NCBI GenBank assembly: GCA_008125075.1
Contig: VLTH01000002.1
Coordinates: 1,307,965-1,371,964, forward strand
DNA from: Acetivibrio alkalicellulosi
GTDB taxonomy: Bacteria > Bacillota > Clostridia > Acetivibrionales > Acetivibrionaceae
Direction of reading: 5' to 3'
DNA: 64,000 bases
Shown here one piece after another: positions 1-48,857 of this stretch (the first letter of the stretch is position 1; every line of letters starts with the position of its first letter). The notes below the pieces were generated by a model that was given only the letters and a program-made list of their open reading frames with translations, ran no database searches and was not told the DNA's origin. The translations under genes and the position numbers were made by a program.

Positions 1-3000
1 CACCTATTTTTATTTCAACTTCTTTCTGGCCTCTGCTAGTTAGTCTTGTTGCAAAAAACTCTACAACTCCACTTTCTACTGAAGTTCCCTTGTTTTCAAC
101 TGCTGCTCTTACACGAGTAAGTTCACCTTCATTTGGATGTACACCAATATCATAATATGCATATTTAGACTCTGTTTGTAAAGTATGAGGATCAATATCA
201 TAATAAATTCTGGCATATTCAAGCTTCTCTATTACAGAACCCATACTAAAGTCTATAGAATAACTTGCAGGGTAATAATACCTCTCTTGATTATTTAAAT
301 ATCCTTCAGGCTTTACCTGTGACATTGGTGTTTCATCTACTATGTAAATATATCCATTATTTTTCCACACATTATTTCTACTTAAACTAACCTCTTCTTC
401 ACCATCAACAATCCTTGTTACAGAGCGTATTGGAGTATCTGGCAAAGGATCTTTAAGCATTAAAACCTGATACCTTGGCATTTCTGGTTTATTTGGATCT
501 TCCTCTAGAGCTGGAACACTAAATTCTAATGTAGTTTCATTTTCACCATCTGGCTGTTTTTCAACCTTCAGACTTTGAGGCACATAAATCGGAAGCCTCA
601 TTCCAGTGTTTAAATTAATCAGATAATTTGGAAATCCTGTCTCCCCTACGTCAACAAGGCTCAAAACACCATCATCCCCACTGTCGTCTAAGAATAGATT
701 GTCTTTACCTATTATTTCAGTTGATATCCCAACTATTAAAGGATTTAATTGCACTCCCTTGTAGTCTCGGTGAGTAAGTGTTGCTCTAAAGTCACGGAAC
801 TCTCCTTCAAAAGGCTCTGCTCCCTCTTCTTCCTCATACATATCCCATCTTACTAGCCAGTATCCACTTGTACGCTGACCAGGCTCTATATTACCTAAAT
901 TAAGCCTGAATCTGTTGCCTGTATTGCTTCCAAAGGATGTCTCCAATATATTAAATTCAGTTAATAATCCCGGCTGATTTGCTGAAATACTAAGCTGTCC
1001 TGAATCTATAACAAGATTTTTTGCCTCTCCATATCCCATATTTTCAGCAACCACTCCAAGCCTGAAAGGTTGACCGGATTGAACTTTTCCTGGTATATAG
1101 TAGTTTAGCTTAATCTTTGGCTGTGGATATATTGTTATCTCCTCAGGCTGAGTCTGAGTCTCTACATAACGTCCATTTACATAGTAAGACACTATTGCTC
1201 GGGCAAGATAAACCTTACCTTCAGCCTCTTGACCTCCTAAGCCTTCACCAGGTATTAGCTGCCAAGTAGCAGTCATATTATCACCTGCTGACAGGGAATC
1301 TGCCCCATCAAGAGAAGATATCCCCGTTATCCCTGTAGGTATAATAAAGTTTTGACCTGTTACATCATTTCCCTCTTCATCAGTTATAGTAACTCTTACC
1401 TCAAGATTATCCAGAGAATTATCAGGATAACCGTTTGATACCATTAAAGTAGCATCAAATGCCTGTCTCTCAAGAGTAGCTGTCTGACCAAGTTTAAGGC
1501 TTACTATCTGATAATCTCCCCCACTACTTCCGCTATTATCTTTTCTGTCTCTAATGGGGTGAAAATAGTCATACTCAAATAAATCACCCTCTGGTATATT
1601 TACTTCTATTTCTTCCTCAGTATCTTTTATCTTTAAAACAGCAGTTCTCTCACCAGGATTATACATTGGTAGAGCTCCCATAACTTCTTTTGGCGGATAC
1701 TCAGGAAGTCCTGTATCAGAATCAAAGCTTACATATTTACCCTGTAGTATTATTGCATTATAAGGCAAACCTATATCTCTGTTAATGCCACTTTTTAAAT
1801 TGTAATAACCTGGTTGTATCATGATGCTTATTCTGGCACTTCCATGGGCTGGAATTTCACCTATATAACCTCCACCAACGATGCTTATTCCCATATCTGA
1901 AAGGTTTTCTCTAAGCACTGAAGCTGTAACATCTGTAATTGCAACAAGTCCTGTATTAATCACTTGTGCCTCAACAATTACAGTTTCATTTATCTGTTTT
2001 GCTACAGTTACCCATGGTGGTACAAATCCAAATTTCGGACGTGGAATATTTGTACCAAAGGTTAACTCCAACTCAATGTCATATTTGTCTTCGATTGTAG
2101 TAGGTACAACAGTCCATTCTATTGTAACAGGCTGTACTTCCATTATAACTTCAACTAAGGCAGCATCTCTCATAGGCATTACCTGTGCAGTACCATCTAC
2201 TCTGTTTCTACCTCGTGCTCTTATTGTATAGTCGTATTCTCCCAAAGGTGTGTTATCAAATGTAACTATTCCATTACTATTAGTTCTTCCATAATAGTTT
2301 TCATAATAGGTTACTTCTTGTCCCCTTATAACCTGTATATATGGCTCTTTCCCAACAATAGTAACTTCAGCATTTTCCACCCTTTCACCTGTTTCATCAC
2401 TTACAACAAATGATAATGATCCTCTGTTTGCACTTGAAACTTCTACACCCACAGCAACCGTGGTACTATATTTTCCATCAGTTACAACTATATTATCCTG
2501 ATATTGTCCTAACGAAGTGCCCTCTGGTGGATTTATTAAAATATCAAAGCTGGTTGACTCTCCTGGTGCTAAGTTAGTCTTTTCTAGATTAACACCTCTT
2601 ATCCAAGGTAAATCTTTAGGAGATTCTAGCCTTATGTTATCCATCCTTCCAAGACCTTTATTAGTAAGGGTAATTCTTTTTACAGCATTACCACCTGGAT
2701 TCACACCTACTTTTACTCCTTTTTGCTCAGTCACCGGCATTGGTACTGCAGGTCTTAAATGAAGCTTAATATTAGATGTATACGTTGCTCCCTGAGCACT
2801 GCTAAATATCACCTGATACTCTGCTATGTCCTCACAGTCTAGAGGTGCATTGAAGTTTAGCATTACCCCACTTTTTCCTCCTGATGTAATAACAGATGAA
2901 AGTGAAGATGTATCCATTACAGCCCTCACTCCACTTTCAGGAGTAAGATTTACCAGAACTGCACTGACTCCTGTCAGGCTATGCCCTGCATGTGCCATAT

Positions 3001-6000
3001 TTTCAACAGATATAAACCTTGAAAAACTTGAATTTTTAGAGGAAACAATTGATAAATTGGATGGTGATGCCTTCATTCCCCACACAGTAAAGTCTGTAAC
3101 AGCAACGTTTCCAACACCCATTTCATATGCAAATGCATGTACATTCCATTTTCCTGCACCTAAAGTGGTAGGAAGAAAATCCATCTCAAAGTATCCATTT
3201 TCATCTGTATTCACAAAACGAATAGTTTCAGCATGCCATATTTTCATAATCTGCTTTCCATTTATAATTGCCGGAACAGGAAATGGAAGCCTTGGCTCTA
3301 GGAATAAATTTAACACTATCCTTTCATTTGCAACAGGACTTCCATCCCTAAATCTGAACTGACCAGATATTCGAACTGTTTCCCCATGTTGGTAAGCTCT
3401 TTTATCTGTATTAACTGTTGCAACAGTCTCCTGCACCATCATAATATTACTTGAAAGAGTTATATTTTCTACTCCATCCCCTACTTCAACAGTTAATCTA
3501 TATCTACCTGATTCTAATGACATGACAGGAAGCTGTCCTTTAAAAGCACCTTCTGCAAAATCATATCCAATTTCACCATCCATAATAATTTGAGCATCTC
3601 TTCTTAATGTATAAAATGCACTTATACCATCATTTGGCCCTAGAACTCTTGAAAGATCACTTGCTTTTTTCACTATTGCCCTAATAGGTATAAAGTTATC
3701 TGTTGTTGAATATACATGTGCCATAAACTGTTCACTCTGATCATGTGGATCTGGGTTAACTTGTACAACTAATGCATCAGCAACATTAAAACTCTCTTGC
3801 CAACTTCGTCTAACTCCCTCTTTTATAGGTTGCTGAACTATCCTGTCTGCTTTGTCAACAACTATTTTGACATCTACATCTCCTGTTTTTTGAGGAATCC
3901 ATGTTAAGTCCACAATTGCAGTACTATGGCCTCTTAGCCCGGAAACTTGTTTTCTGGCTACCTGCTCTCCCTCTACATAAAGCCCAACATTAAATTGATC
4001 AAATATGGAGGTTACGCTCTGATTGCTTACCCTTGCAATAAATGTTACTGGTTCTCCATACTTTATTGACATAGGTGACCACTGCACATCAGAAATATGT
4101 AAGTCAGGATAAATCATTCTTAATTCGGGTACCTTTGCATCTACTCTGATTTCATCTTTATCTCCCGTAACAATTCCTAATGGATCAGCAATAACACTTA
4201 CCGAATGACTACCGGGCCTTGCTAACCATCTTGTCCATACTTCCCTTTCTTCTCCTGCACTAAGCCCATCTATGGTAATAGTTCTTATTCTTTCTCCATT
4301 TACTACAAAATCTACATCAAACTTGTTTATTATATCAATATCCCCTGTATTTCTTACAGTTGTTTCAAATGTCAGGGATGTACCATCTGTAAGTATTGTT
4401 TCTCGTGGCAACCAAGTTACACCAGATAGTTCAATTTGAGGATAAGTCACCCTAAACTCAGGTGTAACTACACTCATGATATTATTGTCTCTGTCAAGTT
4501 CTAATAATGAGGGATCTGGGTCGTCAACTTTAACAGTTACTTCATGTTTTCCATCTTCAGGTCTTACCACAAACATAATCTCTCTAGTTTGATCAACATC
4601 AAGTACATTTACATGCTGTTTTGCTACCCACTCACCATTTATATAAAGTGATACATAAAACCTTTCAGCTCTAGCTGTACCTATATTAGCTATAGCTGCT
4701 CTGTAACCAAAGTGGCTCTCACTGTCAATATCCACTTTATCTCCTGATGTCCATGTAATATCAACTACCTTTACATCTGGAAAATTAACCTGAGTGGTAG
4801 TTAATGGAATAGATTTTGAATTATTGCTCATATCTATTTCCTTTAGGTTGTCTAGTATATCGTTGGCTACAACTTTCACAACATGAACTCCTGGTTCTGC
4901 AATCCATGTAAAAGGTACTTGAACACTCTCCCCTGGCTCAATGCTTTCATCTACCCTTACATAACCTAAATACCTGTTGTTAATATAAAATCCTGTTAAG
5001 AACCCTTGCTTATTAGCTCCATTACCTATATTACCTATGTGTGCAGTAATTTTTACCTGATCTCCCTCATCAGGGCTAATTGGTTCCCATACAATATCAT
5101 TTACAATAAGATCTGGTCTATTGTCTAGAACTTTTACCGTTACAGCATCCTCAGATACTGCTCCATTGTTGTCTGTTACAGCAAGACTTATATTGTATTG
5201 TCCTGGAATCTGATATACATGAGTAATGATTGCACCACTTTTTATAGCACCATCACCTAAATCCCATGTGTATGATACTATTCTTCCATCAGTATCTGAA
5301 GATTCGCTTCCATCTAAAGAAAGCCTGTCTCCCGAATAAATCTGCTCACTTGTTTTGATATAAGCAGTTGGAGCTTTATTTAACCTTATTTCACTATAGA
5401 GTGTATTGTTATCTAGATCAATGTCCTCAGTTCCTGGTAATGTGTCAACTACCACCTTTATATTTACAGGACTCTCCAAGTTTTTATCTGGAATCCAGCT
5501 AATAGATGCCTCTGTAGAATTCATACTTCTTACTTCAACTATAGTACTTCCAATACTACTCCATTCATCATTATCCTGAATGTAAAAGCTCACATTACCA
5601 TGAGCCTTTGCATATGCAAGGTTTTTAATAAGTGCAGTAATTTCTCCTTCTCTTTCATAAGTAGGCAATCCTGGACTTGTACTTATTTGTGTAACTGTAA
5701 GATCACTTTTTGCTGAAGGAACACCTGAAACCTGGTTTGAGTTTTCACTCTCATTTCCTGCCATATCCACTGCTCTTACAACATAGTGATAAATCACTCC
5801 ATTCTCAAGTCCAGTATCTCTATAAACAAGGCCTTTTGTACTTTCAACTAATATAAAAGGTCCTCCACTTTCAGTTGCTCTATATAGTGCATATTTTTCC
5901 ACATCATCGCTTAAGCTTCTTTCCCATGAAAGATGAAGCTCTCCACCTGAATGAGAATCCATTACTGCAAGATTTGAAGGTGCTAATGGTATCTCTCTAT

Positions 6001-9000
6001 CAACAATATACCTTTTTATAAATGAAGTTTCATTATTTCCCTTATTTATAGCTGAGGCACGTACTGCATATGTTCCAGATGCTAGATGCGACACATCCCA
6101 TATATAAGATGAAATATAGTAGTTTTCTCCTATTCCCACTTGAGGTATGTCTCCATCCATAATAATTTCGAGAATATCCTCTAAATCCAGTGTTTCACCT
6201 TGCCTTGGTGAAATATCTTCACCTATAATATGCCATATTTCATCGCCAGTAATATTAGCATATGGAGATTCTCCAAGATAAGCATATTCATATATTAGAC
6301 TTACTCCAACTGGATCACTTATAATTGTTTCTAGTTCTAAAGTGCTGTTTGTTCTAAAAAATTCATAAGGCATCATATCAAGAATCAATGGATTAGAAGC
6401 TTGATGCAGTGATCTTATATCAATATGTTCACTTATGATTTCATCATTTGAATAGTCATAAGTACTCTCACTTTCTCTTCCTAAATCGTTAACTACTGCA
6501 ACCTTATAGAAGTATTCTATTTGAGGATCCTTCATTGTATCTATAAATACATTTGAAGTGGTGCGCTCAACTATCTTCTTCCATTCTCCGTCTCTTCCTT
6601 CTTTTCTATAGAGAACATAATAACGAAAATCAGGCCTTAGTACAGGGGACCAACTAACAACCATTTGCCATTCTCCAGCTTTTACATAGAGATACTCAGG
6701 TGGTAATGGAGGGTCATTTGTCAATGTATAAGTATGTACTTTTTCTGAATAATTTCCCGCCTCATCACTTACAACAACCCTAATCTGATATTCTCCATCT
6801 GAATAAATGTAATTCCCATCTGAATCTTTTGCAAGAGTATCCCATATAACTGTAACCTCCTGCTGTGTAGCATTATGTACTTCTCCTATAAGAGTCCACT
6901 CTTCCACATCAAGGGGTCTAAATTCAAACGAGTATAATGATACACCTTTATTGTCCCGTGCATAGGCAGATATTTCAACATTTCCTCTGATTGGAGAACC
7001 ACTTACAGGAGTAAATCTTATAATTTCAGGAGGAGTTACATCTCTTCCTGGAGTTACATTTACTATGTTTGAAGGCTCACTTTCACTTCCTAAAATATTA
7101 ACTGCCGTCACCTTATAATAACTTGCACTATCTAAAGGTGCCTTATAATCTGTATAAAAAGTACTTTGAGTTCTTGCTATTAATTCGAAACTTTCAAGCT
7201 CTTCACTGTGAATACTTCTATATATTCTAAAATGATCAAAGTTTTCAGGTATTTTTACCAACTCCCAATTAAGGGTAATACCAAGTTCAATAGGGCTCGC
7301 CTCAAGAACAGGCGTATCTGGAGGTATACTGTCAATTATGTATGATACTATAGCTTCACTGCTGTTATTTGATGTATCTGTCACCACTACTTTAACAAAG
7401 TATATGCCATCTTCAACATGTTGAGTATCCCAGTCTATTACTCCTGATGTTGTTACACCTATACTTATCCATAAGTCCTCTGTCAAATCTTTAGAGTATA
7501 AAAACTCTGTATTTTTAACTTTCACATTGTCTTTTGAAACAACATTTAACCTTACTATTTCTCCAATATAACTTCCATCCGCAGGTGTTATGCTAATTAT
7601 TTCAGGTGGTGTTGTATCAGGTAAAACAGTCACCGGCAGACTTATTATACCTTCACCCTCAACTCCAAAACTGTCTATCACTGTCACTTTATATGTATAA
7701 GTAGTTCCTTCTAAAAGGTTGGTGTCAGTATATGAAGTTGAAATCAACTGACTTATAAGTTGATATTCTTCACCATTTGCACTTTTGTAAATTCTATACC
7801 TATGGACATTTTCATCCACCTTAGACCACACAACATCAACCTTAAGTTCACCAGCAGTCACAAATATTTCTTCAGGAGTGCCTGGAATTTTAATATCTGC
7901 ACTTAAAGGTTGACTCTCTTCACTTTCATTACCTGCCTTATCATATGCTGTAACAGTATATGTATATATATTATCAGTACTAACATCTTCATCAGTATAT
8001 CTGTTTATATTAGATGATCCAATCTTTTCACCATCACGGTAAACATTATAACCTTCAACTCTTACATTATCAGTTGAGTTGTTCCATATAAGGGTAATAG
8101 ATGATTGAGTTTTTGAATTAATTCTCAAGTTTCCAGGAATAGTGGGGGGCTCAGTATCAACAGCTGCCGTTACAGTTATGCTCTCACTTTCACCCGAACG
8201 ATTTCCAGCAACATCATATGCCTCAACCGTATAAACATATGTTTCATCTGGTGTTAATCCTGTATCAGTAAAGCTTGTTTGAGTTATATTTCTAATAAAG
8301 GAACCATTTCTGTATACTCTATATCCTGATACGCCTATGTTATCAGAAGATGCTGTCCATTGTATTGTAACTGAAGTAGGTGTAACTGAAACAACTTCAA
8401 CATCTTGTGGTACTGTTGGAGGTTCATTATCATATGTTACACTACTACTTATATCAGATACATTACCTGATGCATCATAGGCTTTAACTGTATATACATA
8501 TGTTCCTGGTTGTAAGTGGCTATCTGTGTATCTGGTATTTGTTGTATCTGCTATGTGAGTATCGTTTCGCAATACTTTGTATCCTGCAACTGCAGCATTG
8601 TCTGTTGAAGCAGACCAAGACAAAGATACAGAGGTATCTGTTCTTGAGCTTATACTTAAATTTCGTGGAATTGTAGGTGGTTCATCATCAACATCAGTAG
8701 TAGCACTTATAGCTTCACTGTCATCAGAAAAGTTTCTTGAAGGATCATATGCCCTTACTGTATATGTGTATTGAGTGTTTGGTGTAAGCCCCTGATCAAT
8801 ATACCTAAGAGTCCTTGTATTACCCACTCTTATACCATTTCTATATATGTCATAGCCTTCTACCTGAACATTGTCAGTAGATTCATCCCATTCTATAGTA
8901 ATTGTAGTCAATGTCTTTCCTGTTACCCTTATATTCTCAGGTACTGTAGGCGGCTGGTGGTCTGCCACATCTTCAATTAATGTATTCCAAACAGGTATTG

Positions 9001-12000
9001 AATTAAATGAGTATCCTCCTCCATCTAAAGGCTTTGTTATTACAAGTTCATTAAATCCAGAGTCGGATGGATTTTGAAATGAAACCCATTGTAGCTGGGA
9101 ACCACTTAAAATTGATCTGTGGCTTTGTGTTGCCCTAAAATTAACTATACTTGAGTTAGTAAATGTATTTCTAATTTGTGTAAAATTCCCCCTTACCTCT
9201 AAAATCCCCGATGTAAGATATCCATTGTGATTATAACGGCTTTGAGTTACAAATTGTCCTATGATCCTTACATAATCGTTTTCATTATTCATCCTGATAT
9301 ATCCATTACTATTTCCATATGAAAAACTTCCATCGGTCTGATAATTTTTGCTTTGTATTCTATAATCACCGTCTACAAAAAGCTGGCCTCCATTTATATT
9401 TATAGTTCCTCCTGCTTGTATAAGGTTGCCACCTACTGTAAGATTATACTTGTTTAAATTAAGAGTTCCACCATGAACATAAAGGCTACCTTTAATTTCT
9501 ATATCATTTTGCAAGGTACGGTTCTCTTCAATACTTATATCATAGGGCCAAACATGCCAGTTTACCTTAGCATTTGCCCCAAGAAATAAATATTCTCCTC
9601 CCTGCACAGGAGATAATGTTTCCATTATTTCTCCTGTCACCACAGTTTTAGAAGTAAACCTTACTCCATTTTGTGAAGTATTTTTAATTTCTAAAATATT
9701 AATAGTTGAATTTGAACTTGCAGAACTTTCAAAACTTATTCTTTGAAGTGAATCTCCATTAAGTACCACCTTGTGATTATCTGTAGATCTAAAGTTGTTT
9801 TGTGCACTGTGAATTTTTTGAATAAAGTCTCCTGCAACTTCTAATATACCTTCTTTAAGATAATCTAGATGACTATATTGGCTTTGGGTTACAAAATCTC
9901 CTTCAACCCTTACAACATCATCTTCATGTGTCATCTTTAAGTATCCATTACTGTAAATATATATTTTTTCATCATTTGTTGGAATCTCAGTCTGAATTTT
10001 ATAATCACCCTTAACAATTAGCTGACCTCCATTTATGTCCATGACACCACCAGACTGTATTAAATCTCCATGAACAGTTAAAACATATCCATCTAAGTCA
10101 AGTACTCCTGCTCCAAGATACAAATTACCATCATAATCTTGGTCACTTAAAAGCTTCCATCCTGTTAACTGTTCTTCTCCAGGGAATTTTATCTTACATC
10201 CATTATCTATAAATGTACTTGCATTTAACGCCTGATTAAATTCTATGCCTTCCTCTGAATAATTTTGTATTTCAAGTATGTTAAACCTAGATTGCGGAGT
10301 TTGTATAGTTACCGTTTGTAAACTTTCACCACTTAGTATTGTCCTGTGGCTTCCTGAAGCAATAAATTCGTCTCTATTCCATCTATGCGTTCTCTGTACA
10401 AAGTCTCCCTTCACTTCTAAAACACCAGCAGTTATCCTATTATTGTTTACAAAATATGACTGAGTAATAAAATTTCCTTCAACACATATATAACCGTCTG
10501 CCTTGTCCATAAATAAGTATGCATAATCTGCGTCTCCATAAGTTATATCACCCTGATTGTTTACATTTTCTGTCTGTATCCGGTAATCTCCTTTTACAAT
10601 AAGCTCTCCACCATTTATATTCAAAGTTCCTCTTGAATGTATTAGATTGCCTTTTATAGTCAGTTTTTTCTCGTTTAAATTAAATGTTCCGTTACGTATG
10701 TAAAAATTCCCTTCTATCGCCATATCATTTTGCATGGTGCGATTATCCTCTATACTCAAATCATATGGCCATATCTCCCAATTTACCTCTGCATTTACTC
10801 CCAGGTATAAATTCTTTCCTCCTGTAATAGGGGTTGATGTTTCTTTTATTTCTCCATTTACTACTACCTTTGATGTAAACTCTATTCCGCCTTCGGAGGT
10901 GTTTGTAATTTCAAGTATGTTTATAACTGAATTTGAACTAACAGAATTCTGAAAATTTACTTTTTGCATATTTTCTCCGCTTAATACCACCTTGTGATTA
11001 CTAGTAGGCCTAAAATTATTCTGTGCACTATGGATTCTATGGGTAAAGTCTCCTAAAACCTCCAACACACCTTCTGTAAGATAACTATTATGACTATGTT
11101 GACTGTGGGTTATAAAGTCTCCTTCTACTTTTACATATGCACCTTCTTCTGTCATTTTTAAATACCCATTACTATGTATGTAACTTTTATTTCCCTCTAC
11201 ATCTTCTATTTCTGTCTGAAGTCTGTAATCTCCTTCTATGTGAAGCTTTCCTCCATTTACATCCACTGTTCCTCCAGACTGTATTAAGTTACCATTTATT
11301 ATTAGTTGGTATCCATTTAAGTCTAGTACTCCTCCTCCAAGGTAAAGATCTCCATTATATACTTGATCACCTGTCAAACTCCATCCAACAATTTCTGAAC
11401 GAGGAAATATCACTATACACCCATTGTCTATAAAGACATTTGCATTTAGCGATTGAACAAATTCTACTCCTTCATCTGAATAATTTTTTATTTCAAGTAT
11501 GTTAAATCTGGATATTTGCGTTTCTAAACTGACTGTTTGCAAACCATTTCCACTTATTATAGTCCTGTGACTTCCAGTAGCAGTAAAATCATCTCTACCC
11601 CATCTATGTGTCAATTGGACAAAATCTCCTTTTACTTCTAGTATCCCCCCAGTTATCCTATTATTATTTGTATAACATGCCTGCATTATAAAATTTCCTT
11701 CAACACATATGTAGTCATCTACATTATCCATAATTAAATATGCATATTCTGCACCTACATAAGTTATATCTCCCTGATTATTTGTATTTTCTCTCTGGGT
11801 TCGGAAGTCTCCATTTACAATTAGTTCTCCACCATTTATGCTCAAAGTTCCTCTTGCGTGTATCAAGTTTCCTTCCACTATCAGCTTGTAGCCATTTAAA
11901 TTAAGTGATCCATTATCAATATATAAATCTCCAAAAACTGTGTCTTCAAATAAAGCAGTTGGAGAATTAATTACTGTTTTTTCCCTTGGTGTAGTAACAT

Positions 12001-12790
12001 ATAATTCATTGCTAGGCTCTGAGATACTTCCTTCTATATCTACTGCCTTTATGGTAAATATATAATGTGTATAAGGTGAAAGATTTTCTATTATACATGA
12101 TGTATACATAGCATCAACTGTTTTAATTAGAGAATTGTCTTCATAAATATTATAATAACTTATATCTTCATTATCTGAACCTTCTGTCCACTCTAATTCT
12201 ACTTTTGTACTGGTCTTTGATTTCAATACAAGATTTTGTGGTGCTAAAGGAGTTAAAACATCTTCTTCAGTTAGCATTTCATTGTCTTCTATTAGTTCTT
12301 CTGTTTCCTCTGACACCTCAGTAAAATCTTCTTCAGCTCCTGATTCTACCAACTCATCTTCAAAGTCAATCCCTTCTAAAGCATCTAATTTCATACCTTC
12401 TTGACCACTGATGTTCTCGTCTTTTAATCCATCTATTTCTATACTTTCACGATCATTTATGTGCTTATTTTCTAAATCCATGTCTTCTTCTATTATTAGT
12501 TCAAATACATCATCATAGACATATGCCTCTTTTGCTATATCCCCATGACCATCGGCGTACTCATCTTTTGTACTCCCATTGTCATTTATTACTTCTTCTA
12601 AGTTATGGTCATAGAGTTTCTCCTTTTCACCCACATATTCATGTTCATCATCATAAAATTGTTGATTTTTATTGATCATTTCTCCTACTGAAGCATCAGC
12701 AAGAACATATGAATTCTGATAAGAAAAACTCATGGTCAGACACATAACTATAACCATTATAAATGCCACGTACCTATTAAAAATACTCAC
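1..12790 (-). CDS. Giant secreted multi-domain surface protein, 5' part only (more than 4260 aa in window; the C-terminus lies beyond the window start). Order of parts: signal peptide, acidic region, FN3 domain, at least 5 right-handed beta-helix modules, then a long array of FN3/Ig-like domains.
   Basis: Uninterrupted minus-strand reading frame from a GTG at 12790 to position 1. My hand translation of both ends finds no stops. The six-frame track shows only short plus-strand ORFs here, which is consistent with a single partial ORF running off the window. An RBS-like AAAGGGGTG lies 7 nt upstream of the GTG. The N-terminus MSIFNRYVAFIMVIVMCLTMSF...VLADA looks like a signal peptide. The translated segment GDLYIDNGSLNLNGYKLIVEGNLIHARGTLSINGGELIVNG is typical of a parallel beta-helix. 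Further 3' along the minus strand, units of about 270-275 nt recur, each encoding the FN3-like signature AYD...GN.S. Confidence 0.8.
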   Translation of the reverse strand, partial: MSIFNRYVAFIMVIVMCLTMSFSYQNSYVLADASVGEMINKNQQFYDDEHEYVGEKEKLYDHNLEEVINDNGSTKDEYADGHGDIAKEAYVYDDVFELIIEEDMDLENKHINDRESIEIDGLKDENISGQEGMKLDALEGIDFEDELVESGAEEDFTEVSEETEELIEDNEMLTEEDVLTPLAPQNLVLKSKTSTKVELEWTEGSDNEDISYYNIYEDNSLIKTVDAMYTSCIIENLSPYTHYIFTIKAVDIEGSISEPSNELYVTTPREKTVINSPTALFEDTVFGDLYIDNGSLNLNGYKLIVEGNLIHARGTLSINGGELIVNGDFRTQRENTNNQGDITYVGAEYAYLIMDNVDDYICVEGNFIMQACYTNNNRITGGILEVKGDFVQLTHRWGRDDFTATGSHRTIISGNGLQTVSLETQISRFNILEIKNYSDEGVEFVQSLNANVFIDNGCIVIFPRSEIVGWSLTGDQVYNGDLYLGGGVLDLNGYQLIINGNLIQSGGTVDVNGGKLHIEGDYRLQTEIEDVEGNKSYIHSNGYLKMTEEGAYVKVEGDFITHSQHSHNSYLTEGVLEVLGDFTHRIHSAQNNFRPTSNHKVVLSGENMQKVNFQNSVSSNSVINILEITNTSEGGIEFTSKVVVNGEIKETSTPITGGKNLYLGVNAEVNWEIWPYDLSIEDNRTMQNDMAIEGNFYIRNGTFNLNEKKLTIKGNLIHSRGTLNINGGELIVKGDYRIQTENVNNQGDITYGDADYAYLFMDKADGYICVEGNFITQSYFVNNNRITAGVLEVKGDFVQRTHRWNRDEFIASGSHRTILSGESLQTVTIQTPQSRFNILEIQNYSEEGIEFNQALNASTFIDNGCKIKFPGEEQLTGWKLLSDQDYDGNLYLGAGVLDLDGYVLTVHGDLIQSGGVMDINGGQLIVKGDYKIQTEIPTNDEKIYIYSNGYLKMTHEDDVVRVEGDFVTQSQYSHLDYLKEGILEVAGDFIQKIHSAQNNFRSTDNHKVVLNGDSLQRISFESSASSNSTINILEIKNTSQNGVRFTSKTVVTGEIMETLSPVQGGEYLFLGANAKVNWHVWPYDISIEENRTLQNDIEIKGSLYVHGGTLNLNKYNLTVGGNLIQAGGTININGGQLFVDGDYRIQSKNYQTDGSFSYGNSNGYIRMNNENDYVRIIGQFVTQSRYNHNGYLTSGILEVRGNFTQIRNTFTNSSIVNFRATQSHRSILSGSQLQWVSFQNPSDSGFNELVITKPLDGGGYSFNSIPVWNTLIEDVADHQPPTVPENIRVTGKTLTTITIEWDESTDNVQVEGYDIYRNGIRVGNTRTLRYIDQGLTPNTQYTYTVRAYDPSRNFSDDSEAISATTDVDDEPPTIPRNLSISSRTDTSVSLSWSASTDNAAVAGYKVLRNDTHIADTTNTRYTDSHLQPGTYVYTVKAYDASGNVSDISSSVTYDNEPPTVPQDVEVVSVTPTSVTIQWTASSDNIGVSGYRVYRNGSFIRNITQTSFTDTGLTPDETYVYTVEAYDVAGNRSGESESITVTAAVDTEPPTIPGNLRINSKTQSSITLIWNNSTDNVRVEGYNVYRDGEKIGSSNINRYTDEDVSTDNIYTYTVTAYDKAGNESEESQPLSADIKIPGTPEEIFVTAGELKVDVVWSKVDENVHRYRIYKSANGEEYQLISQLISTSYTDTNLLEGTTYTYKVTVIDSFGVEGEGIISLPVTVLPDTTPPEIISITPADGSYIGEIVRLNVVSKDNVKVKNTEFLYSKDLTEDLWISIGVTTSGVIDWDTQHVEDGIYFVKVVVTDTSNNSSEAIVSYIIDSIPPDTPVLEASPIELGITLNWELVKIPENFDHFRIYRSIHSEELESFELIARTQSTFYTDYKAPLDSASYYKVTAVNILGSESEPSNIVNVTPGRDVTPPEIIRFTPVSGSPIRGNVEISAYARDNKGVSLYSFEFRPLDVEEWTLIGEVHNATQQEVTVIWDTLAKDSDGNYIYSDGEYQIRVVVSDEAGNYSEKVHTYTLTNDPPLPPEYLYVKAGEWQMVVSWSPVLRPDFRYYVLYRKEGRDGEWKKIVERTTSNVFIDTMKDPQIEYFYKVAVVNDLGRESESTYDYSNDEIISEHIDIRSLHQASNPLILDMMPYEFFRTNSTLELETIISDPVGVSLIYEYAYLGESPYANITGDEIWHIIGEDISPRQGETLDLEDILEIIMDGDIPQVGIGENYYISSYIWDVSHLASGTYAVRASAINKGNNETSFIKRYIVDREIPLAPSNLAVMDSHSGGELHLSWERSLSDDVEKYALYRATESGGPFILVESTKGLVYRDTGLENGVIYHYVVRAVDMAGNESENSNQVSGVPSAKSDLTVTQISTSPGLPTYEREGEITALIKNLAYAKAHGNVSFYIQDNDEWSSIGSTIVEVRSMNSTEASISWIPDKNLESPVNIKVVVDTLPGTEDIDLDNNTLYSEIRLNKAPTAYIKTSEQIYSGDRLSLDGSESSDTDGRIVSYTWDLGDGAIKSGAIITHVYQIPGQYNISLAVTDNNGAVSEDAVTVKVLDNRPDLIVNDIVWEPISPDEGDQVKITAHIGNIGNGANKQGFLTGFYINNRYLGYVRVDESIEPGESVQVPFTWIAEPGVHVVKVVANDILDNLKEIDMSNNSKSIPLTTTQVNFPDVKVVDITWTSGDKVDIDSESHFGYRAAIANIGTARAERFYVSLYINGEWVAKQHVNVLDVDQTREIMFVVRPEDGKHEVTVKVDDPDPSLLELDRDNNIMSVVTPEFRVTYPQIELSGVTWLPRETILTDGTSLTFETTVRNTGDIDIINKFDVDFVVNGERIRTITIDGLSAGEEREVWTRWLARPGSHSVSVIADPLGIVTGDKDEIRVDAKVPELRMIYPDLHISDVQWSPMSIKYGEPVTFIARVSNQSVTSIFDQFNVGLYVEGEQVARKQVSGLRGHSTAIVDLTWIPQKTGDVDVKIVVDKADRIVQQPIKEGVRRSWQESFNVADALVVQVNPDPHDQSEQFMAHVYSTTDNFIPIRAIVKKASDLSRVLGPNDGISAFYTLRRDAQIIMDGEIGYDFAEGAFKGQLPVMSLESGRYRLTVEVGDGVENITLSSNIMMVQETVATVNTDKRAYQHGETVRISGQFRFRDGSPVANERIVLNLFLEPRLPFPVPAIINGKQIMKIWHAETIRFVNTDENGYFEMDFLPTTLGAGKWNVHAFAYEMGVGNVAVTDFTVWGMKASPSNLSIVSSKNSSFSRFISVENMAHAGHSLTGVSAVLVNLTPESGVRAVMDTSSLSSVITSGGKSGVMLNFNAPLDCEDIAEYQVIFSSAQGATYTSNIKLHLRPAVPMPVTEQKGVKVGVNPGGNAVKRITLTNKGLGRMDNIRLESPKDLPWIRGVNLEKTNLAPGESTSFDILINPPEGTSLGQYQDNIVVTDGKYSTTVAVGVEVSSANRGSLSFVVSDETGERVENAEVTIVGKEPYIQVIRGQEVTYYENYYGRTNSNGIVTFDNTPLGEYDYTIRARGRNRVDGTAQVMPMRDAALVEVIMEVQPVTIEWTVVPTTIEDKYDIELELTFGTNIPRPKFGFVPPWVTVAKQINETVIVEAQVINTGLVAITDVTASVLRENLSDMGISIVGGGYIGEIPAHGSARISIMIQPGYYNLKSGINRDIGLPYNAIILQGKYVSFDSDTGLPEYPPKEVMGALPMYNPGERTAVLKIKDTEEEIEVNIPEGDLFEYDYFHPIRDRKDNSGSSGGDYQIVSLKLGQTATLERQAFDATLMVSNGYPDNSLDNLEVRVTITDEEGNDVTGQNFIIPTGITGISSLDGADSLSAGDNMTATWQLIPGEGLGGQEAEGKVYLARAIVSYYVNGRYVETQTQPEEITIYPQPKIKLNYYIPGKVQSGQPFRLGVVAENMGYGEAKNLVIDSGQLSISANQPGLLTEFNILETSFGSNTGNRFRLNLGNIEPGQRTSGYWLVRWDMYEEEEGAEPFEGEFRDFRATLTHRDYKGVQLNPLIVGISTEIIGKDNLFLDDSGDDGVLSLVDVGETGFPNYLINLNTGMRLPIYVPQSLKVEKQPDGENETTLEFSVPALEEDPNKPEMPRYQVLMLKDPLPDTPIRSVTRIVDGEEEVSLSRNNVWKNNGYIYIVDETPMSQVKPEGYLNNQERYYYPASYSIDFSMGSVIEKLEYARIYYDIDPHTLQTESKYAYYDIGVHPNEGELTRVRAAVENKGTSVESGVVEFFATRLTSRGQKEVEIKIG
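9150..11950 (-). repeat. Tandem intragenic repeat of alternating A/B modules, each about 600 bp (a super-repeat of about 1.2 kb, at least 2.5 copies). These encode the beta-helix modules of the giant protein.
   Basis: Near-identical stretches recur at about 9190, 9830, 10400, 11045 and 11620. For example, 11617-11700 resembles 10396-10480, and 11041-11130 resembles 9826-9915. A-type and B-type copies alternate. Confidence 0.75.
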
Positions 12791-12861
12791 AAATACACCC
12801 CTTTTTTTACCCACATAAAAATTAAACTCTGTTATTATTATTTAAGTAAGAATGGAAGATT

Positions 12862-12990
12862 GAATATATACTATTCTTCTCAAAAAGTTCTTTTTACTAA
12901 ACTTTTATACATTAAGTCTTATAGCTTAAGTTTCATAAGACTCTTTTTGAGAAAATGTAGTTCCTCTGTTTATTGCATCGAACTTACTAA
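12862..12990 (-). repeat. R4-c: a diverged copy of the roughly 120-bp R4 repeat in reverse orientation. It carries an inserted AAGTCTT...AAGACT hairpin and sits 70-200 bp upstream of the giant gene.
   Basis: 12856-12880 is identical to the reverse complement of the R4 end (tatatactattcttctcaaaaagtt). The internal block tagttcctctgtttat is conserved. Overall identity to the reverse complement of R4-a is about 70%, and there is an insertion of about 35 bp. Confidence 0.55.
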
Positions 12991-13353
12991 CTTGATTTGA
13001 GCTTACGCTGAGAAATGTATATGAGTTCATCAAATAATTAAATACTCTACTACGTAATTTCAAAACGGCTTAACAGCTTATGCAGGATATTAAATAATTT
13101 TTATTTAATTAACATTATGTATAATTATATAATTAACCACCTCTAAAATCAACTTATATTGTTTAAGAATTTAAGAAAGGTGTATTTAATATATGTGAAG
13201 AAAAATATTCCAGAAACTTAAGTTTCCCAGTCTAGAGCCAGTAAATACTCCTGGAGGCGGAGCAAGTTAGCCTTTAACATAAAAAAGTGTTTAAGTAACT
13301 TTTTGAGTTGACAAAGGGACGAAGGTGTTAACTATCGTCCCTTTGTTAAAATT

Positions 13354-13419
13354 CTTGGAACAAAGTGAAAGACTTAAAATCGAAGGGGCTCGATGCCCCG
13401 TAAATATTTCAGACATTCC
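13354..13419 (+). repeat. R1-A element (two hairpins ending in GGGGCTCGATGCCCC) fused to a right-end fragment of the R2 element (gtaaatatttcagacattcc). It probably also acts as the terminator of the binding-lipoprotein gene.
   Basis: The sequence cttggaacaaagtgaaagacttaaaatcgaaggggctcgatgcccc is shared with copies at 25633, 53585 and 48803 (the last in reverse). The final 20 nt match the right inverted repeat of R2 copies at 18162-18181 and 62275-62294. Confidence 0.7.
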
Positions 13420-15078
13420 TTAATTAAAAGGTATATACCATTTTGAATAATCCTCATATTTATTCCATATACTTGGATTTAATTCTCCTCGTATCTTCCT
13501 ATTAAATAAAGCGGCATCGTTATAAAAGTATAACCCCAAATATGGTACATCTTGGTTTATTAATCTTCTCATATTTATAAAATATGATTTCTTCCTTGAA
13601 AAGTTATTTTCCTTTAGAATAAGATCAAGATACATGTCAACCCCTTCTCTTTCGTAACCTGCTATATTAAAACCTCCTATTTCTTTTGAAGAATACATAA
13701 AAGAAATATCGGCTACTGAAGTTATTGTACATCCAATTAAAACCATGTCGAATTTACCCGAGCTAATCCTTTGATTCATTTCATCCCACGTAACCTCATC
13801 TATTTCTATTTCTATTCCTATTTCTTTTAGCTGATTTTTTATCTCATGAGCAACTTTTATTCGAGTACTGTTATCATTGTTTACCAGTAGCTCAAGCTTT
13901 AGAGGTTTATTAGCCCAACCAATTTTCTTATGAAGCACACCCTGATTGTTTTCTTCCCATCCACTTTCTAAAATAAGTTCTCTTGCCTTATTTATATTTA
14001 CTTCTTTAGAAATGATATTGGTATCATAAATCCATGTGTCAGGTATTACTGGCATCTCTGAAGCTATAGCTTCACCTGGCATAATATTATTTATTAATTT
14101 ATCTCTGTCAACAGTATAAGCTATTGCATTTCTTATTTCACTCTCTTGTAAAATACTATTGGAAAGATTAAAGGCAATAAACTCAAACTTATTACTAGGA
14201 TATTTTTTCAGTGCAATGTCTGATCTGCCAATGTACCTTATCCAAGCTGATCTATCCATATGAATTATGTCAACCTCTTTAGATTGAAAGGCATCACCAA
14301 TTGACATATTCCTTGGAAATATTTTTATAACAATTTGAGAGATATAGGGAAGGTTAATTTCATTTTCCCCTTCTCCCTCACCTCTCCACCAATTTTCATT
14401 TTTTATAAGCTTAATATGCTTATTTGCCTCATACTCTGAAAACTTATAAGGGCCAGTTCCCACTGGTCTGTTATTCCTATCCGTTGTAAGTATCTCTTCT
14501 TCGTAAAAATAGTGTTTAGGGATAATTGGAAATGACAGAAGCTCCGGAGTAAAAGAGTTAGGACTGTTTAGTTCCACTTTAAATGTCATATTGTCAACTA
14601 CTGAAAAAGCACTTATATTTTTAAGATTGATTCTATAGTGACTATTAACAGAACTACTAAGTATTACATTAAAAGTAAACTCCACATCTTCCGATGTAAA
14701 AGGTATATTATCATGCCAGTAAACATTTTCTCTTAAATAAAAAGTCCATTGAAGACCATCATCAGAAACTTCCCAACTTCTAGCAAGTAAAGGAACTGGC
14801 TTTTGTCTTCTGTCTATCTCTACGAGACTCTCAAATATAAATTCCGAATAATCTTTAACATAGGCATTTTTTGTCAGTAAAGGATTGAGTGTATCTGGCT
14901 GGGTAGAAAAAAGATTTAACACTCCACCTTCTTCAGGTCCTCTATCTATAACATCATCTAGAATATAATTTAATGGCATATTCTCTTCATCAGGTTCTTC
15001 TTCATAAATATATAATTCACAGGATGAAATAAATATACTAAATATTATTAATATGATTATAACTATAGTTTTTTTCAA
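13420..15078 (-). CDS. ABC-transporter substrate-binding lipoprotein, family 5 (oligopeptide/dipeptide-binding, OppA/DppA-like). It is an orphan: no permease or ATPase genes lie next to it.
   Basis: 552-aa ORF. The lipoprotein signal MKKTIVIIILIIFSIFISSC ends in a lipobox cysteine. Size and sequence character fit cluster-5 solute-binding proteins. I recognise the family from the translation. Confidence 0.75.
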   Translation of the reverse strand: MKKTIVIIILIIFSIFISSCELYIYEEEPDEENMPLNYILDDVIDRGPEEGGVLNLFSTQPDTLNPLLTKNAYVKDYSEFIFESLVEIDRRQKPVPLLARSWEVSDDGLQWTFYLRENVYWHDNIPFTSEDVEFTFNVILSSSVNSHYRINLKNISAFSVVDNMTFKVELNSPNSFTPELLSFPIIPKHYFYEEEILTTDRNNRPVGTGPYKFSEYEANKHIKLIKNENWWRGEGEGENEINLPYISQIVIKIFPRNMSIGDAFQSKEVDIIHMDRSAWIRYIGRSDIALKKYPSNKFEFIAFNLSNSILQESEIRNAIAYTVDRDKLINNIMPGEAIASEMPVIPDTWIYDTNIISKEVNINKARELILESGWEENNQGVLHKKIGWANKPLKLELLVNNDNSTRIKVAHEIKNQLKEIGIEIEIDEVTWDEMNQRISSGKFDMVLIGCTITSVADISFMYSSKEIGGFNIAGYEREGVDMYLDLILKENNFSRKKSYFINMRRLINQDVPYLGLYFYNDAALFNRKIRGELNPSIWNKYEDYSKWYIPFN

Positions 15079-17277: not shown

Positions 17278-17465
17278 ATCTAAAACACCTCTTTACTATT
17301 GTATATTTTGACAACTTCTACTATTAGTTTTAAAAAATCAGTCTAATTTATTTTTCACAAGCCTATTTTAGCATTTAATTATGCATAAGTCTAATTTACA
17401 TTTAAAAACGGTGAATATTTTTCTTCGCATTTATTAAATTCACCCTAAAAAATTTAGTATTTAAA

Positions 17466-17505
17466 TAAGTGAACTCGTTTTAGCTAAAGCTAAACGAGTT
17501 CACTT
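17466..17505 (-). terminator. Perfect 14-bp-stem hairpin, aagtgaactcgttt/aaacgagttcactt. Likely a terminator or processing site downstream of the small secreted-protein gene.
   Basis: The perfect inverted repeat is seen directly. The flanking T-run is weak, so the terminator function is inferred. Confidence 0.4.
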
Positions 17506-17506
17506 G

Positions 17507-17604
17507 GGAATGCTGAAAATATAACTTCAACTACTATTTCTCTTCAGGTCTTATTTGATGCCAAATAGCCCCCATGAGGAGTGCAAGTAATATTTCAGCT
17601 AATC
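17507..17604 (+). repeat. R2-a: MITE-like palindromic element, about 98 bp, with terminal inverted repeats of about 17-25 bp (GGAATGCTGAAAATATAACTTCCAC ... GTGGAAGTAATATTTCAG).
   Basis: Terminal inverted repeats are visible. Related copies lie at 18031-18181, 53469-53556 (reversed), 62221-62294 and the fragment at 13400-13419. The internal segment GGCCTTATTTGATGCCAAATAG forms a nested hairpin. Confidence 0.8.
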
Positions 17605-17619
17605 TCTATTTAAATTATA

Positions 17620-17988
17620 TTATTGTATTTGATGCATAAATACCTGTACCAAATACATTCGTGTTTCCTGAGAGTATGCTTGCATATTCTCAAAAGAATC
17701 CTCACATATTTCTTCAAATTTTTCATTTACAACTTTTTTCACATCGTCATAGTCCTTATCCTCCAATAAAATCAATACAACCCTTTCTCCATCAGTATCA
17801 GATAATTCAATTTTTTCTTTTAACACTTGGGTAATTTTTTCTTGGTCACAGTCATTGCTTGTTACTTCAAAATCATTTTGATTTTCTTCATTAAAAGTAC
17901 CAAACACCTCCTCTGAGATTGAACCCCCAAGTATTAAAACTACGTACAACACAAACATTGACAAACTAAGTGCTAACTTTTTTGCCAT
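17620..17988 (-). CDS. Small secreted hypothetical protein (signal peptide, acidic). It is flanked by two direct copies of the R2 element.
   Basis: Start taken at the second ATG, with AGGAGG 7 nt upstream. Translation: MAKKLALSLSMFVLYVVLILGGSISEEVFG.... No family recognised. Confidence 0.5.
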   Translation of the reverse strand: MAKKLALSLSMFVLYVVLILGGSISEEVFGTFNEENQNDFEVTSNDCDQEKITQVLKEKIELSDTDGERVVLILLEDKDYDDVKKVVNEKFEEICEDSFENMQAYSQETRMYLVQVFMHQIQ

Positions 17989-18030
17989 ATACATGCCTCC
18001 TTTAAAAATTTTTTTATATTTTAATATTTA

Positions 18031-18181
18031 GGAATGCTGAAAATATAACTCCCACTACTATTTCACTACAGGCCTTATTATAAGATCAAAGTGAATACTA
18101 AAAAGGTCCTGCTCAATGCTCCGAGCTTTTGTTGGTGCTAAATAGACCCCATGAAAAGTAGAAGTAATATTTCAGACAACC
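18031..18181 (+). repeat. R2-b: a longer (151 bp) copy of the R2 MITE-like element with an internal insertion.
   Basis: Its left end ggaatgctgaaaatataactcccac and right end gaagtaatatttcagac match the R2-a and R2-c termini. Confidence 0.8.
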
Positions 18182-18546
18182 CTTAATAAAATATTGTCGT
18201 AATTTTTGTTTTGTTGTCCAAGAAAATATTGTATATTAAAATTATAATTTTGTCAAACTTTCCGCACCACTTTTAGGTAATTATAGGAATATGCTTCATT
18301 AAAGTTGTATATGATTATATATTTTTGTGAACTGGTTTAGCTAAATCTAACATCAGGGCTTCAAGTGGATACTCTACTTCATCTAAAGATTACAAGAGAA
18401 ACTCTACCTTATATAAGGTGTCTTAAAATAATATAAAAAACCCTCTTGAACAAGCTGAAATCTGCCGATAAATTATATGTATATTATTTATCTTGTTATT
18501 AAACATAACTTATCTCTTATTTCTAATAATTTAAGGAGTTGATCTA

Positions 18547-25022: not shown

Positions 25023-25250
25023 AAAATACTCCCTCCAATAGTTTGATATACAATAACAAATAAAATCAAATGTTCATTCATACTGCCATTATTGACGAAT
25101 TTTTTATGTATATAGAATAATAGTTCAACGAATTTTTACAAAACCCTTCTTTTTTAAATATATTTTTTCCTTTTTAAAGTTAAATTCCTTTTACTTGCAT
25201 AGGGAAATATTTCATATTTCCCAGTTTTTCAAAGCTTTTCAAACTATATC

Positions 25251-25449
25251 GGGTGCATATTATTTAAGTGAAGAAAAATATGGAAGAAACATTGTAAAGC
25301 AATTAGTAGAGCCTGTTAATGCGACGAGGAAAGGGAGAGCATTGTTTGAGCGAAGCGAGTTTTGCTCGATGCCGAGGAGTATTTACAGGCTCTAAACTGC
25401 GAAACTTTAGTTTCTGGAATATTTTTCTTCACATTTGTTACATGCACCC
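25251..25449 (+). repeat. R3-a: a 199-bp MITE-like element with roughly 30-bp terminal inverted repeats (GGGTGCAT..TTTAAGTGAAGAAAAATAT). Its interior holds an R1-like core (gagcgaagcgag...gctcgatgcc).
   Basis: The left end gggtgcatattatttaagtgaagaaaaatat matches the reverse complement of the right end gaatatttttcttcacatttgttacatgcaccc. Fragments of the left end recur at 52674, 55143, 58585, 62163 and 12826/13180. Confidence 0.75.
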
Positions 25450-48852: not shown

Positions 48853-48857
48853 CTAAT

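Follow-up and report, generated by a model that had tools for sequence, protein, structure and literature searches.

The stretch of the Acetivibrio alkalicellulosi genome considered here (64,000 nucleotides (nt) of contig VLTH01000002.1, positions 1,307,965 to 1,371,964; hereafter the window) harbours copies of R1, a non-coding repeat of 55-65 nt, which we read, with a probability of roughly 60%, as a small non-autonomous mobile interspersed repeat that targets the tails of terminators and itself carries a terminator-like hairpin. The family as such, the covariation of its stems, sites with and without the repeat, the rules for its flank and its orientation and its arrays are direct observations; no description of R1 was found in literature searches. 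A unit comprises, in this order, a short A-rich lead-in, hairpin 1, an AAAA tract, hairpin 2 and an ATT tail. Hairpin 1 has a 7-bp, mostly A-U stem, the outer pairs of which vary with compensation, and a conserved, purine-rich loop of 12-13 nt that reads GGAACGAAGTGA in one subfamily and TCGAAGGTCGTGA in another, while hairpin 2 combines a GGGGC-TCGAT-GCCCC core with an outer stem of the form AAAANC/GN'TTTT across a purine-rich internal loop.

Sites with and without R1

R1 as such is the variable unit, as seen at three loci compared across related genomes and in one pair of paralogues within the window. Between purF and purM, the 145-nt spacer of L003, an uncultured Bacillota metagenome-assembled genome (MAG), holds 1.8 R1 units, each ending GGAGTTTTTATTAC, whereas the spacer is empty in its relatives (PurM 89-94% identical) L005/L007 (34 nt), L008/L009 (48 nt) and L015/L016, where a single ...TTTTTATTAC (TTTTT(T)ATTAC) is followed by the same downstream sequence as in L003. 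The convergent genes for a J-domain protein and NfeD are 54-119 nt apart in Herbivorax, A. saccincola and one Logan contig, with one common terminator ending ...CCACTTTTTTTATTATT, as opposed to 272 nt in the window, where a second repeat, R2, a hairpin ending TTTTTTTATT and the R1 copies C and D lie between them. Upstream of a Mem_trans gene, L008/L009 have GGTCTTATT joined to ATGTTTATAGG, that is GGTC-TTATT-ATGTTTATAGG, while the filled site of L005 reads GGTC-TTATT, a 37-nt hairpin-1 derivative and TTATT-CTGTTTATAGG, which leaves a clean 5-bp direct repeat. Within the window, the R2 element at 18026-18195 holds copy G in the context CTTATT-(about 53 nt)-TGGTGC, while its paralogue at 17502-17615 is uninterrupted, with CTTATT and then TGATGC.

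The J-domain protein of the second locus, 66-68 amino acids long and with an HPD motif, is highly conserved and encoded convergently with NfeD in A. alkalicellulosi, Herbivorax sp. ANBcel31, A. saccincola and a Logan assembly.

Flanks, orientation and stacking

Every informative copy starts, on its own strand, right after a T-rich pentamer of the form xTxTT (TTATT, TTGTT, TCATT, ATATT or TGATT), the complement of which was never found at the 5' flank of these copies. For the copies A, B, C and E, the copy of a second MAG, L004, and a fragment in contig L010, this pentamer forms the end of a hairpin particular to the locus (25596-25626 upstream of copy B), that is, of a resident terminator. TTATT-like pentamers flank most copies; TTATT itself borders the L005 derivative on either side and occurs a single time where L008/L009 are empty. 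At its 3' end, R1 closes with hairpin 2 and TTTT(A/G)TT, by which the insertion context is re-created; this accounts for the head-to-tail clusters (C/D, the two units a/b of L003, the arrays of L005 and L007) and for the change in unit number from three in L005 to four in L007, the flanks being otherwise identical.

All R1 copies are intergenic. The first-pass annotation placed each of them immediately 3' of a gene, a description that conceals their orientation. In the window, A-D and F run antisense to the gene they face, with 15-170 nt between its stop codon and the hairpin-2 end, copy E is located between two convergent genes, copy G in a divergent promoter region inside another repeat, and copy H upstream of a small open reading frame (ORF), reading in the same direction as its neighbours. 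The MAG lineages have their copies in the direction of the flanking genes, some of them within the pur operon. Such variable orientation with respect to transcription argues against a dedicated orientation-dependent cis-regulatory RNA.

Conservation of the two hairpins

Folding of single copies yields the two hairpins in B (z = -4.46) and C (z = -2.8) on either strand. Five versions of the hairpin-1 stem are found, all paired except for one G.U wobble (AAGTCTT/AAGACTT, AAGCCTT/AAGGCTT, ACCTCTT/AAGAGGT, GCTTCTT/AAGAGGC and ACTTCTT/AAGAAGT), and three versions of the outer stem of hairpin 2 (AAAAGC/GCTTTT, AAAATC/GATTTT and AAAAAC/GTTTTT), the variable pair being G-C, U-A or A-U. Compensatory changes had been taken early on as a sign that the structure is selected, which the five window copies A-E alone do not bear out (covariation not significant; 3 double-change pairs versus 2.0 +/- 1.0 in shuffles), but which 12 copies do, once the homologues from other genomes are added: 85.4% of the stem cells are paired (none of 500 shuffles as high), 7 of 18 pairs have changed on both sides (as many in 2 of 500 shuffles) and the covariation score amounts to 0.214 versus 0.109 +/- 0.021 in shuffles, none of the 500 reaching it. 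Rather than dissolving into random mismatches with additional copies, the signal emerged with them. The proposed structure outscores every slid register for the 12 copies, and a set of 7 copies agrees. The two R1 hairpins are real and maintained by compensatory changes.

These counts were made on model-based alignments in place of a MAFFT alignment, on which RNAalifold recovered the inner stem of hairpin 2 alone; hairpin 1 is missed there because MAFFT places the extra loop T of the MAG copies such that the arms shift by one base. On the R1-sense strand, hairpin 1 and the inner part of hairpin 2 together show 8 G.U versus 0 A.C pairs, a wobble bias that is suggestive, though only that, of one particular strand folding. 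Rfam gave no match at gathering threshold across the whole window, and at E <= 10 only chance-level matches around A, B and C/D.

Copies in the window

A covariance-model search, as had been proposed, was run on the window without filters, with a model built from the copies A-E. It returned eight copies, namely the five listed before, all confirmed (A-E; E = 3e-19 to 2e-10), and three additional degenerate ones, F, G and H (Table 1). The 46-nt consensus as first written matches only copy A at up to 3 mismatches, whereas a pattern of the invariant positions, TTGGA.C..AAGT.AAA.....AAAA...GGC.C.ATGCC, matches 5/5 of the listed copies versus 0 expected by chance; the sub-motif GAAGTGAAAGACTTAAAA has 7 matches in the window versus 0.22 expected, and GGGGCTCGATGCCCC has 4 versus 0.04.

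Table 1. Coordinates of R1 copies, of other repeats in the window and of the J-domain gene
Feature	Position	Strand	Particulars
R1 copy A	13348-13408	+	E = 3e-17; left flank TTGTT (13343-13347); hairpin 1 13350-13356/13369-13375, AATTCTT/AAGACTT with one T.C mismatch, loop GGAACAAAGTGA (13357-13368); A-tract 13376-13381; hairpin 2 GGGGC-TCGAT-GCCCC 13385-13399
R1 copy B	25632-25695	+	E = 3e-19; left flank TCATT; tail ATT; most complete copy; hairpin 1 25634-25640/25654-25660, AAGTCTT/AAGACTT; hairpin 2 outer AAAAGC 25661-25666/GCTTTT 25687-25692, inner GGGGC/GCCCC 25670-25684
R1 copy C	53584-53645	+	E = 5e-19; left flank TTTTTTTATT, tail of hairpin 53557-53575; hairpin 1 AAGCCTT/AAGGCTT (compensatory variant); hairpin 2 outer AAAATC/GATTTT
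R1 copy D	53649-53711	+	E = 2e-10; head to tail with copy C, 5' half common to C; hairpin-1 3' arm gone; hairpin-2 core GGGGCTCAATGCC kept; new outer stem GTGTGG/CCACAC
R1 copy E	48793-48854	-	E = 6e-16; upstream on its own strand the PPK2 terminator (48864-48890), then TTATT (48855-48859); hairpin 1 AAGTTTT/AAGACTT, one G.U pair; hairpin 2 decayed (GGCA-CGA-TGCC)
R1 copy F, degenerate	49979-50034	+	E = 1e-3; left flank TTGTT; hairpin 1 short, AT-rich; hairpin 2 a perfect A-tract/GC-stem/T-tract, AAAAGAGAGGGGGC-AAT-GCCCCCTCTCTTTT
R1 copy G, degenerate	18080-18133	+	E = 2e-3; within R2 element 18026-18195
R1 copy H, degenerate	34351-34404	-	E = 0.09; ATATT, then AGAAGTCTT-GA-AAGACTTAAAAAG
R1-like blocks in R3-a	25345-25373	+	TTTGAGCGAAGCGA (12/14 identical to the R1 loop region), GCTCGATGCC (10/10)
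R2 copy	17502-17615
R2 copy	18026-18195
R2 copy	62216-62304
R2 copy	53462-53558	-
R2 copy	13400-13429
R4 copy	52478-52586
R4 copy	61814-61922
R4 copy (R4-c)	12890-13010	-
J-domain gene, window	53264-53464	+
J-domain gene, L011	11363-11569
J-domain gene, L012	11366-11572
J-domain gene, L014	11431-11637

The hairpin-1 arms quoted in the first-pass annotation were right for B and C, while A carries a T.C mismatch, D is devoid of the 3' arm and E contains a G.U pair. Hairpin 2 is decayed in E and has a new outer stem in D; in A, where an R2 element adjoins with its right end from 13400, the outer 3' arm is missing as a result. A mini-hairpin at 34383-34400, thought to recur on its own, is real, yet part of the full-length copy H, which has lost the hairpin-1 loop and retains hairpin 2 in decayed form (GACTCAATCC).

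Among the minus-strand genes nearby, SBP_bac_5 has its stop codon (13420-13422) beside copy A, the GH11 xylanase gene 50 nt from copy F, and the NfeD gene (53737) 26 nt from the end of copy D. Read on the NfeD strand, copy D has gained a longer stem with TTTTTATAG behind it. Copy E is 5 nt from the end (48788) of a plus-strand P-type ATPase gene. In Herbivorax sp. ANBcel31 (L002 10861-10874), PPK2 is directly convergent with mrpD across a 13-nt spacer, unlike in the window, where the P-type cation ATPase gene (46098-48788) and copy E lie between the two. Otherwise, the window is ordinary chromosome, encoding ABC-transporter binding proteins, a chemoreceptor, a GGDEF-EAL protein, a DUF3686 ATPase and an Mrp antiporter besides the P-type ATPase, PPK2, GH11 xylanase, NfeD and hydrogenase maturases. 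PPK2 and NfeD show 100% identity to A. alkalicellulosi proteins; the NCBI record carries the flag 'UNVERIFIED_CONTAM'.

Homologues in other genomes

Among 185,579 species genomes, the invariant-position pattern matched two loci, both in uncultured Bacillota MAGs (L003 and L004), which are full-length homologues (E ~ 1e-14). This collection is without the A. alkalicellulosi source genome, which is why strict pattern scans miss even the window copies; the strict consensus pattern (GTGAAAGRCTTAAAA...GGCNCRATGCC) found nothing in genome contigs. The L004 copy follows a sugar-binding-protein gene and that gene's own terminator, while the copy of L003, an Acetivibrio-like lineage judging by the 79% identity of its PurM with the counterparts in A. 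alkalicellulosi, A. saccincola and A. mesophilus, has a 5'-truncated second unit ahead of it. More copies and arrays are present in the related metagenome contigs L005, L006, L007 and L010 (PurM 89-94% identical to L003), among them one copy at the contig start of L010, the L010 5' fragment, which lies between purH and purD, and the L005 derivative that retains hairpin 1 only. The family is thus common to A. alkalicellulosi and uncultured Acetivibrio-like digester bacteria, and its insertion and array-length polymorphisms might serve as strain markers.

The distribution is patchy: some 106 kb of sequence from Herbivorax sp. ANBcel31, A. saccincola and other relatives contain no R1 copy at E < 0.5. 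Viral contigs gave no match to the invariant-position pattern, nor did plasmids and phages to copy B in blastn. A strict-pattern match in the metagenome contig L001 was discarded as a chance match inside a peptidase gene, and a weak covariance-model match in Herbivorax L002 (20344-20406) is an ordinary unrelated terminator. In L015 (1843-2222) and L016 (2158-2537), metagenome contigs closely related to L003, purF is a remnant of about 380 nt between purE and purM, which indicates an apparent pseudogenization or deletion of the amidophosphoribosyltransferase gene.

Possible termination and host function

Hairpin 2 looks like a putative bidirectional intrinsic terminator, as judged by its form: a simple terminator scan flags it in A (-), B (+ and -), L003 (+ and -) and L007 (-), though not the weaker stems of C, D and E. 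The early proposal of terminator cassettes holds in so far as hairpin 2 plus its flanks fits the simple terminator pattern on one or both strands, but not for efficient termination in the pur operon, where two units lie between purF and an intact purMNH without a promoter-like site between units and genes, so that termination must be inefficient there. In our reading, the family does not owe its existence to the resemblance to a terminator, which is incidental, although the host may at times put it to use, for example in the case of copy D. The hairpin-2 module is a compact natural candidate for a bidirectional terminator part, possibly useful for the engineering of cellulolytic clostridia.

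Alternatively, R1 could be a host-selected cis-acting RNA module, such as a portable bidirectional terminator, a 3'-end stabilizer or a protein-binding element of the 3' untranslated region, with hairpin 1 as binding site and hairpin 2 as terminator, duplicated and kept for the expression of neighbouring genes. The terminator pattern of hairpin 2 on one or both strands would fit, as would the position of R1 as the first structure past the stop codon of five window genes (A, B, C/D, E and F), the covarying stems and loops conserved across genomes, and G.U pairs that are restricted to the sense strand in the two core helices. We nonetheless hold such a module to be unlikely, as the orientation is inconsistent (window copies run antisense to the adjacent gene, those of the MAG lineages sense), the pur-operon copies lack a promoter-like site after them, yet purM, purN and purH are intact, and close relatives are without R1 at the same sites. 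Furthermore, truncated, decayed and stacked copies are common, and copy G sits within another repeat.

The assumption of an independently transcribed small RNA gene, raised in the first-pass annotation in the form of small-RNA 3' ends, is scarcely credible. While a compact structure with a terminator-like hairpin at its end and conserved folding of the sense strand might be expected of such a gene, no promoter-like site was found in or directly upstream of the copies, which are only about 60 nt long, often directly behind another terminator, stacked, truncated or decayed, and without an Rfam family match. Annotators should not call R1 copies small RNAs or riboswitches.

Several further candidates were discarded. 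A small conserved ORF is interrupted by stops in the sense frames and broken by indels and stacking in the antisense frame; an outward-reading promoter inside R1 would have TTGGAA and TAAAAT only 14-15 nt apart, and the promoter scan was silent. The loop sizes and sequences misfit ANTAR, RAT or other antiterminator targets, for which there is no Rfam match either; a group IIC intron remnant is not supported by any domain V/VI match; and in a CRISPR-like array the units would not abut without spacers as they do here.

A proposed mode of insertion

From these observations we infer mobility in the strict sense, its mechanism, an enzyme and actual termination. R1 would always integrate the same way round, immediately 3' of a T-rich pentamer (TTATT or a near variant), which would usually be the U-tract tail of a resident intrinsic terminator, where an insertion would do little harm. 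With its own end of hairpin and TTTTATT, the element would regenerate its target, such that units could pile up head to tail. The hairpins may be kept because the single-stranded form of the sense strand, either DNA during mobilization or RNA, is recognized by the mobilizing machinery or a host factor. Incidentally, an A-tract/GC-stem/T-tract hairpin would come to lie between genes with each insertion. Targeting of terminator tails together with regeneration of the target would represent a 'safe harbour' strategy, and a large share of the odd intergenic repeats in the A. alkalicellulosi genome would be explained as insertions rather than conserved regulators.

A number of points weigh against a mobile element. 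The covariation counts rest on a model-fitted alignment, and stem changes that distinguish subfamilies are inherited and hence not independent events. Independent loci number only about 13 in total. The outer stem of hairpin 2 loses the wobble bias (1 G.U versus 7 A.C pairs, mostly in decayed copies), and the conservation of the loops across genomes about 20% apart in PurM is equally compatible with a host function. The window contains, according to Pfam, no transposase, recombinase or full-length parent element, and convincing terminal inverted repeats are absent from R1, copy B alone showing an imperfect one of about 10 nt (AGAAGTCTTGG versus the reverse complement AAAAGCTTGG), with weak matches in the others. 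Empty sites might in principle be deletions, although they are seen in three separate lineages, and the target-site duplication is clean in one filled/empty pair only, because the right TTATT doubles as the T-tract of hairpin 2.

A more specific version of the mobile-repeat reading has R1 as the substrate of a single-stranded-DNA HUH/Y1 enzyme, as a clostridial analogue of REP (repetitive extragenic palindrome)/RAYT systems or a minimal IS200/IS605 derivative, cleaved and joined 3' of a short guide-recognized sequence on one strand. Insertion restricted to one strand and one orientation behind a fixed T-rich pentamer, apparently hairpin-dependent recognition with wobble pairs on the sense strand only and the absence of terminal inverted repeats are in line with it. 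IS608 and ISDra2 target TTAC and TTGAT, respectively, which the junctions TTATTAC (L003) and TTGATT (L005/L007) recall, perhaps by coincidence. The size of R1 is also within the range of 21-65 nt of REP elements (PMC6006769). On the other hand, neither hairpin foot carries a GT[AG]G tetranucleotide, the arrays are head to tail and not inverted doublets, the two R1 hairpins differ from each other, in contrast to the similar hairpins at the left and right ends of IS200/IS605, a flanking direct repeat TTATT is not expected of IS200/IS605, and Pfam shows no Y1 transposase within the window, which together leave this version quite improbable.

Speculatively, and we consider it distinctly doubtful, R1 might be the first described ultra-short (about 60 nt) terminator-seeking element of clostridia, a single-stranded two-hairpin substrate that is inserted strand-specifically 3' of a TTATT terminator tail by an HUH-type single-stranded-DNA or RNA-templated enzyme and that rebuilds its target and stacks. 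If so, the mechanism would be distinct from that of miniature inverted-repeat transposable elements (MITEs) of DDE type and of canonical REP/RAYT systems.

Other repeats and neighbouring genes

R3-a (25251-25449) is a classical MITE of about 200 nt with terminal inverted repeats of about 40 nt (GGGTGCATATTATTTAAGTGAAGAAAAATAT...) and a 9-bp target-site duplication AACTATATC at 25242-25250 and 25450-25458. R1 had been described as embedded in R3 and possibly derived from this MITE. The interior of R3-a does not contain the two-hairpin module, and the covariance model detects nothing there; what is shared are two short blocks (Table 1), with neither the hairpin-1 3' arm nor the hairpin-2 5' arm, and filled and empty sites define R1 as a unit of its own. 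The blocks occur in the same order and orientation as in R1, and base composition leads one to expect only about 0.01 exact occurrences of the 10-mer per window. The similarity is too strong for chance and points to some shared ancestry or capture. That R1 is a decaying internal fragment of R3 is nevertheless highly improbable, as R1 has its own precise boundaries and flank rule, is present without surrounding R3 in L003, L004 and L005-L007, and the other R3 copy that spans the region (13179-13265) has diverged there. Further partial R3 copies are located at 17413-17445, 52671-52710, 58593-58639 and 62159-62205, and several solo ends are scattered in the window.

R2 has inverted ends of about 25 nt (GGAATGCTGAAAATATAACTTCCAC ... 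GTGGAAGTAATATTTCAGACATTCC). Two of its copies flank a gene for a 124-amino-acid protein (17620-17994), another is situated just upstream of a GH9-like gene starting at about 62326, and the end fragment at 13400-13429 overlaps the stop and last codons of the SBP_bac_5 gene. R4 measures about 110-150 nt, its two good copies being 92% identical. The hairpin of R4-c at 12916-12945, taken for a relative of R1 hairpin 1, turned out to be unrelated: at this position, the terminal hairpin reads AAGTCTTAT.../...ATAAGACT in R4-c and AAGTTTGC/GCAAACTT in the other two copies, paired in both cases.

Among the neighbouring genes, a giant ORF of >4280 amino acids (2-12841, minus strand) runs off the start of the window and contains internal tandem repeats of about 1221 nt (9344-11692; 71-75% identity). 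A 42-amino-acid ORF (25691-25819, minus strand) with a dockerin-like calcium-binding motif (NGDGNIDNTDYVLM), probably a gene remnant, lies between the DUF3686 ATPase gene and R1 copy B. The GH11-type xylanase gene (50084-52165, minus strand) has two internal repeats of about 300 nt (50409-51197; 89% identity) and Pro/Thr and QQPPA linker repeats that arise from 9-nt tandem repeats (51368-51483).

Comparison with known systems

Like Rho-independent terminators, hairpin 2 places a GC-rich stem between an A-tract and a T-tract, but, unlike ordinary terminators, R1 is homologous between loci and has a conserved upstream hairpin and loop, and an internal loop lies between its 5-bp core stem and the outer stem. 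Class C group II introns of bacteria home just downstream of intrinsic-terminator stem-loops in fixed orientation, and group II introns in general are ribozymes of >600 nt that comprise domains I-VI and usually carry an ORF for a reverse transcriptase. R1 resembles class C introns in its homing behind terminators as a safe harbour, but differs by its size of about 60 nt and the absence of an Intron_gpII Rfam match in the window.

With classical MITEs such as Correia, RUP and ERIC, R1 shares a small size, non-autonomy, multiple copies, presence/absence polymorphism and, cleanly at one site, a short flanking direct repeat, and such elements can carry regulatory signals such as terminators. R1 is, however, much shorter, lacks an identified parent insertion sequence and does not qualify as a classical MITE, because real terminal inverted repeats are missing; moreover, it inserts in a constant orientation relative to an asymmetric target, as MITEs mobilized by DDE transposases do not usually do. 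Fixed orientation together with hairpin-dependent conservation would fit a single-strand or site-specific mechanism better than a DDE transposase. Miniature elements of IS200/IS605 type (PATE) have similar subterminal hairpins at both ends, insert strand-specifically 3' of a target of 4-5 nt without duplicating it and have a tnpA/tnpB partner. R1 inserts orientation-specifically 3' of TTATT-like pentamers, but its hairpins are dissimilar, a flanking direct repeat is seen and a partner gene is absent from the window.

REP elements are extragenic imperfect palindromes of 21-65 nt with a 5' GT[AG]G tetranucleotide at the foot of the hairpin, reported to stabilize mRNA or to terminate transcription (PMC6006769). 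As with REP, BIME and REPIN, R1 is within the size range, extragenic, present in many copies, often at gene 3' ends and sometimes within operons, and single-strand recognition is plausible. The feet of R1 are, however, A(A/G)A before AAGTCTT and CGAA before GGGGC, with GTGG in the aberrant copy D alone, all R1 clusters are head to tail, and a unit has two dissimilar hairpins as opposed to the one hairpin of the mostly proteobacterial REP. A RAYT/tnpA-REP (Y1 HUH) gene was not found by Pfam within the window, so that R1 is not assigned to REP/REPIN for want of a GT[AG]G foot, of inverted doublets and of a RAYT in the window.

The closest analogy to R1, by description and not by sequence, may be the bcr1-bcr3 elements (group A) of the Bacillus cereus group. 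The bcr elements measure 100-400 bp, are confined to B. cereus sensu lato, and their mobility is associated with TTTAT (PMC6542083). Both are non-coding, multi-copy, structured chromosomal repeats of Firmicutes with traits of mobile elements, neither encodes a transposase, copy number varies between close relatives, and insertion is linked to a T-rich pentanucleotide, TTTAT for bcr and TTATT for R1. Compared with bcr1-bcr3, R1 is distinguished by its length of 55-65 nt, its Acetivibrio host, the combination of a hairpin with a terminator-like hairpin, its position behind resident terminators and its head-to-tail stacks.

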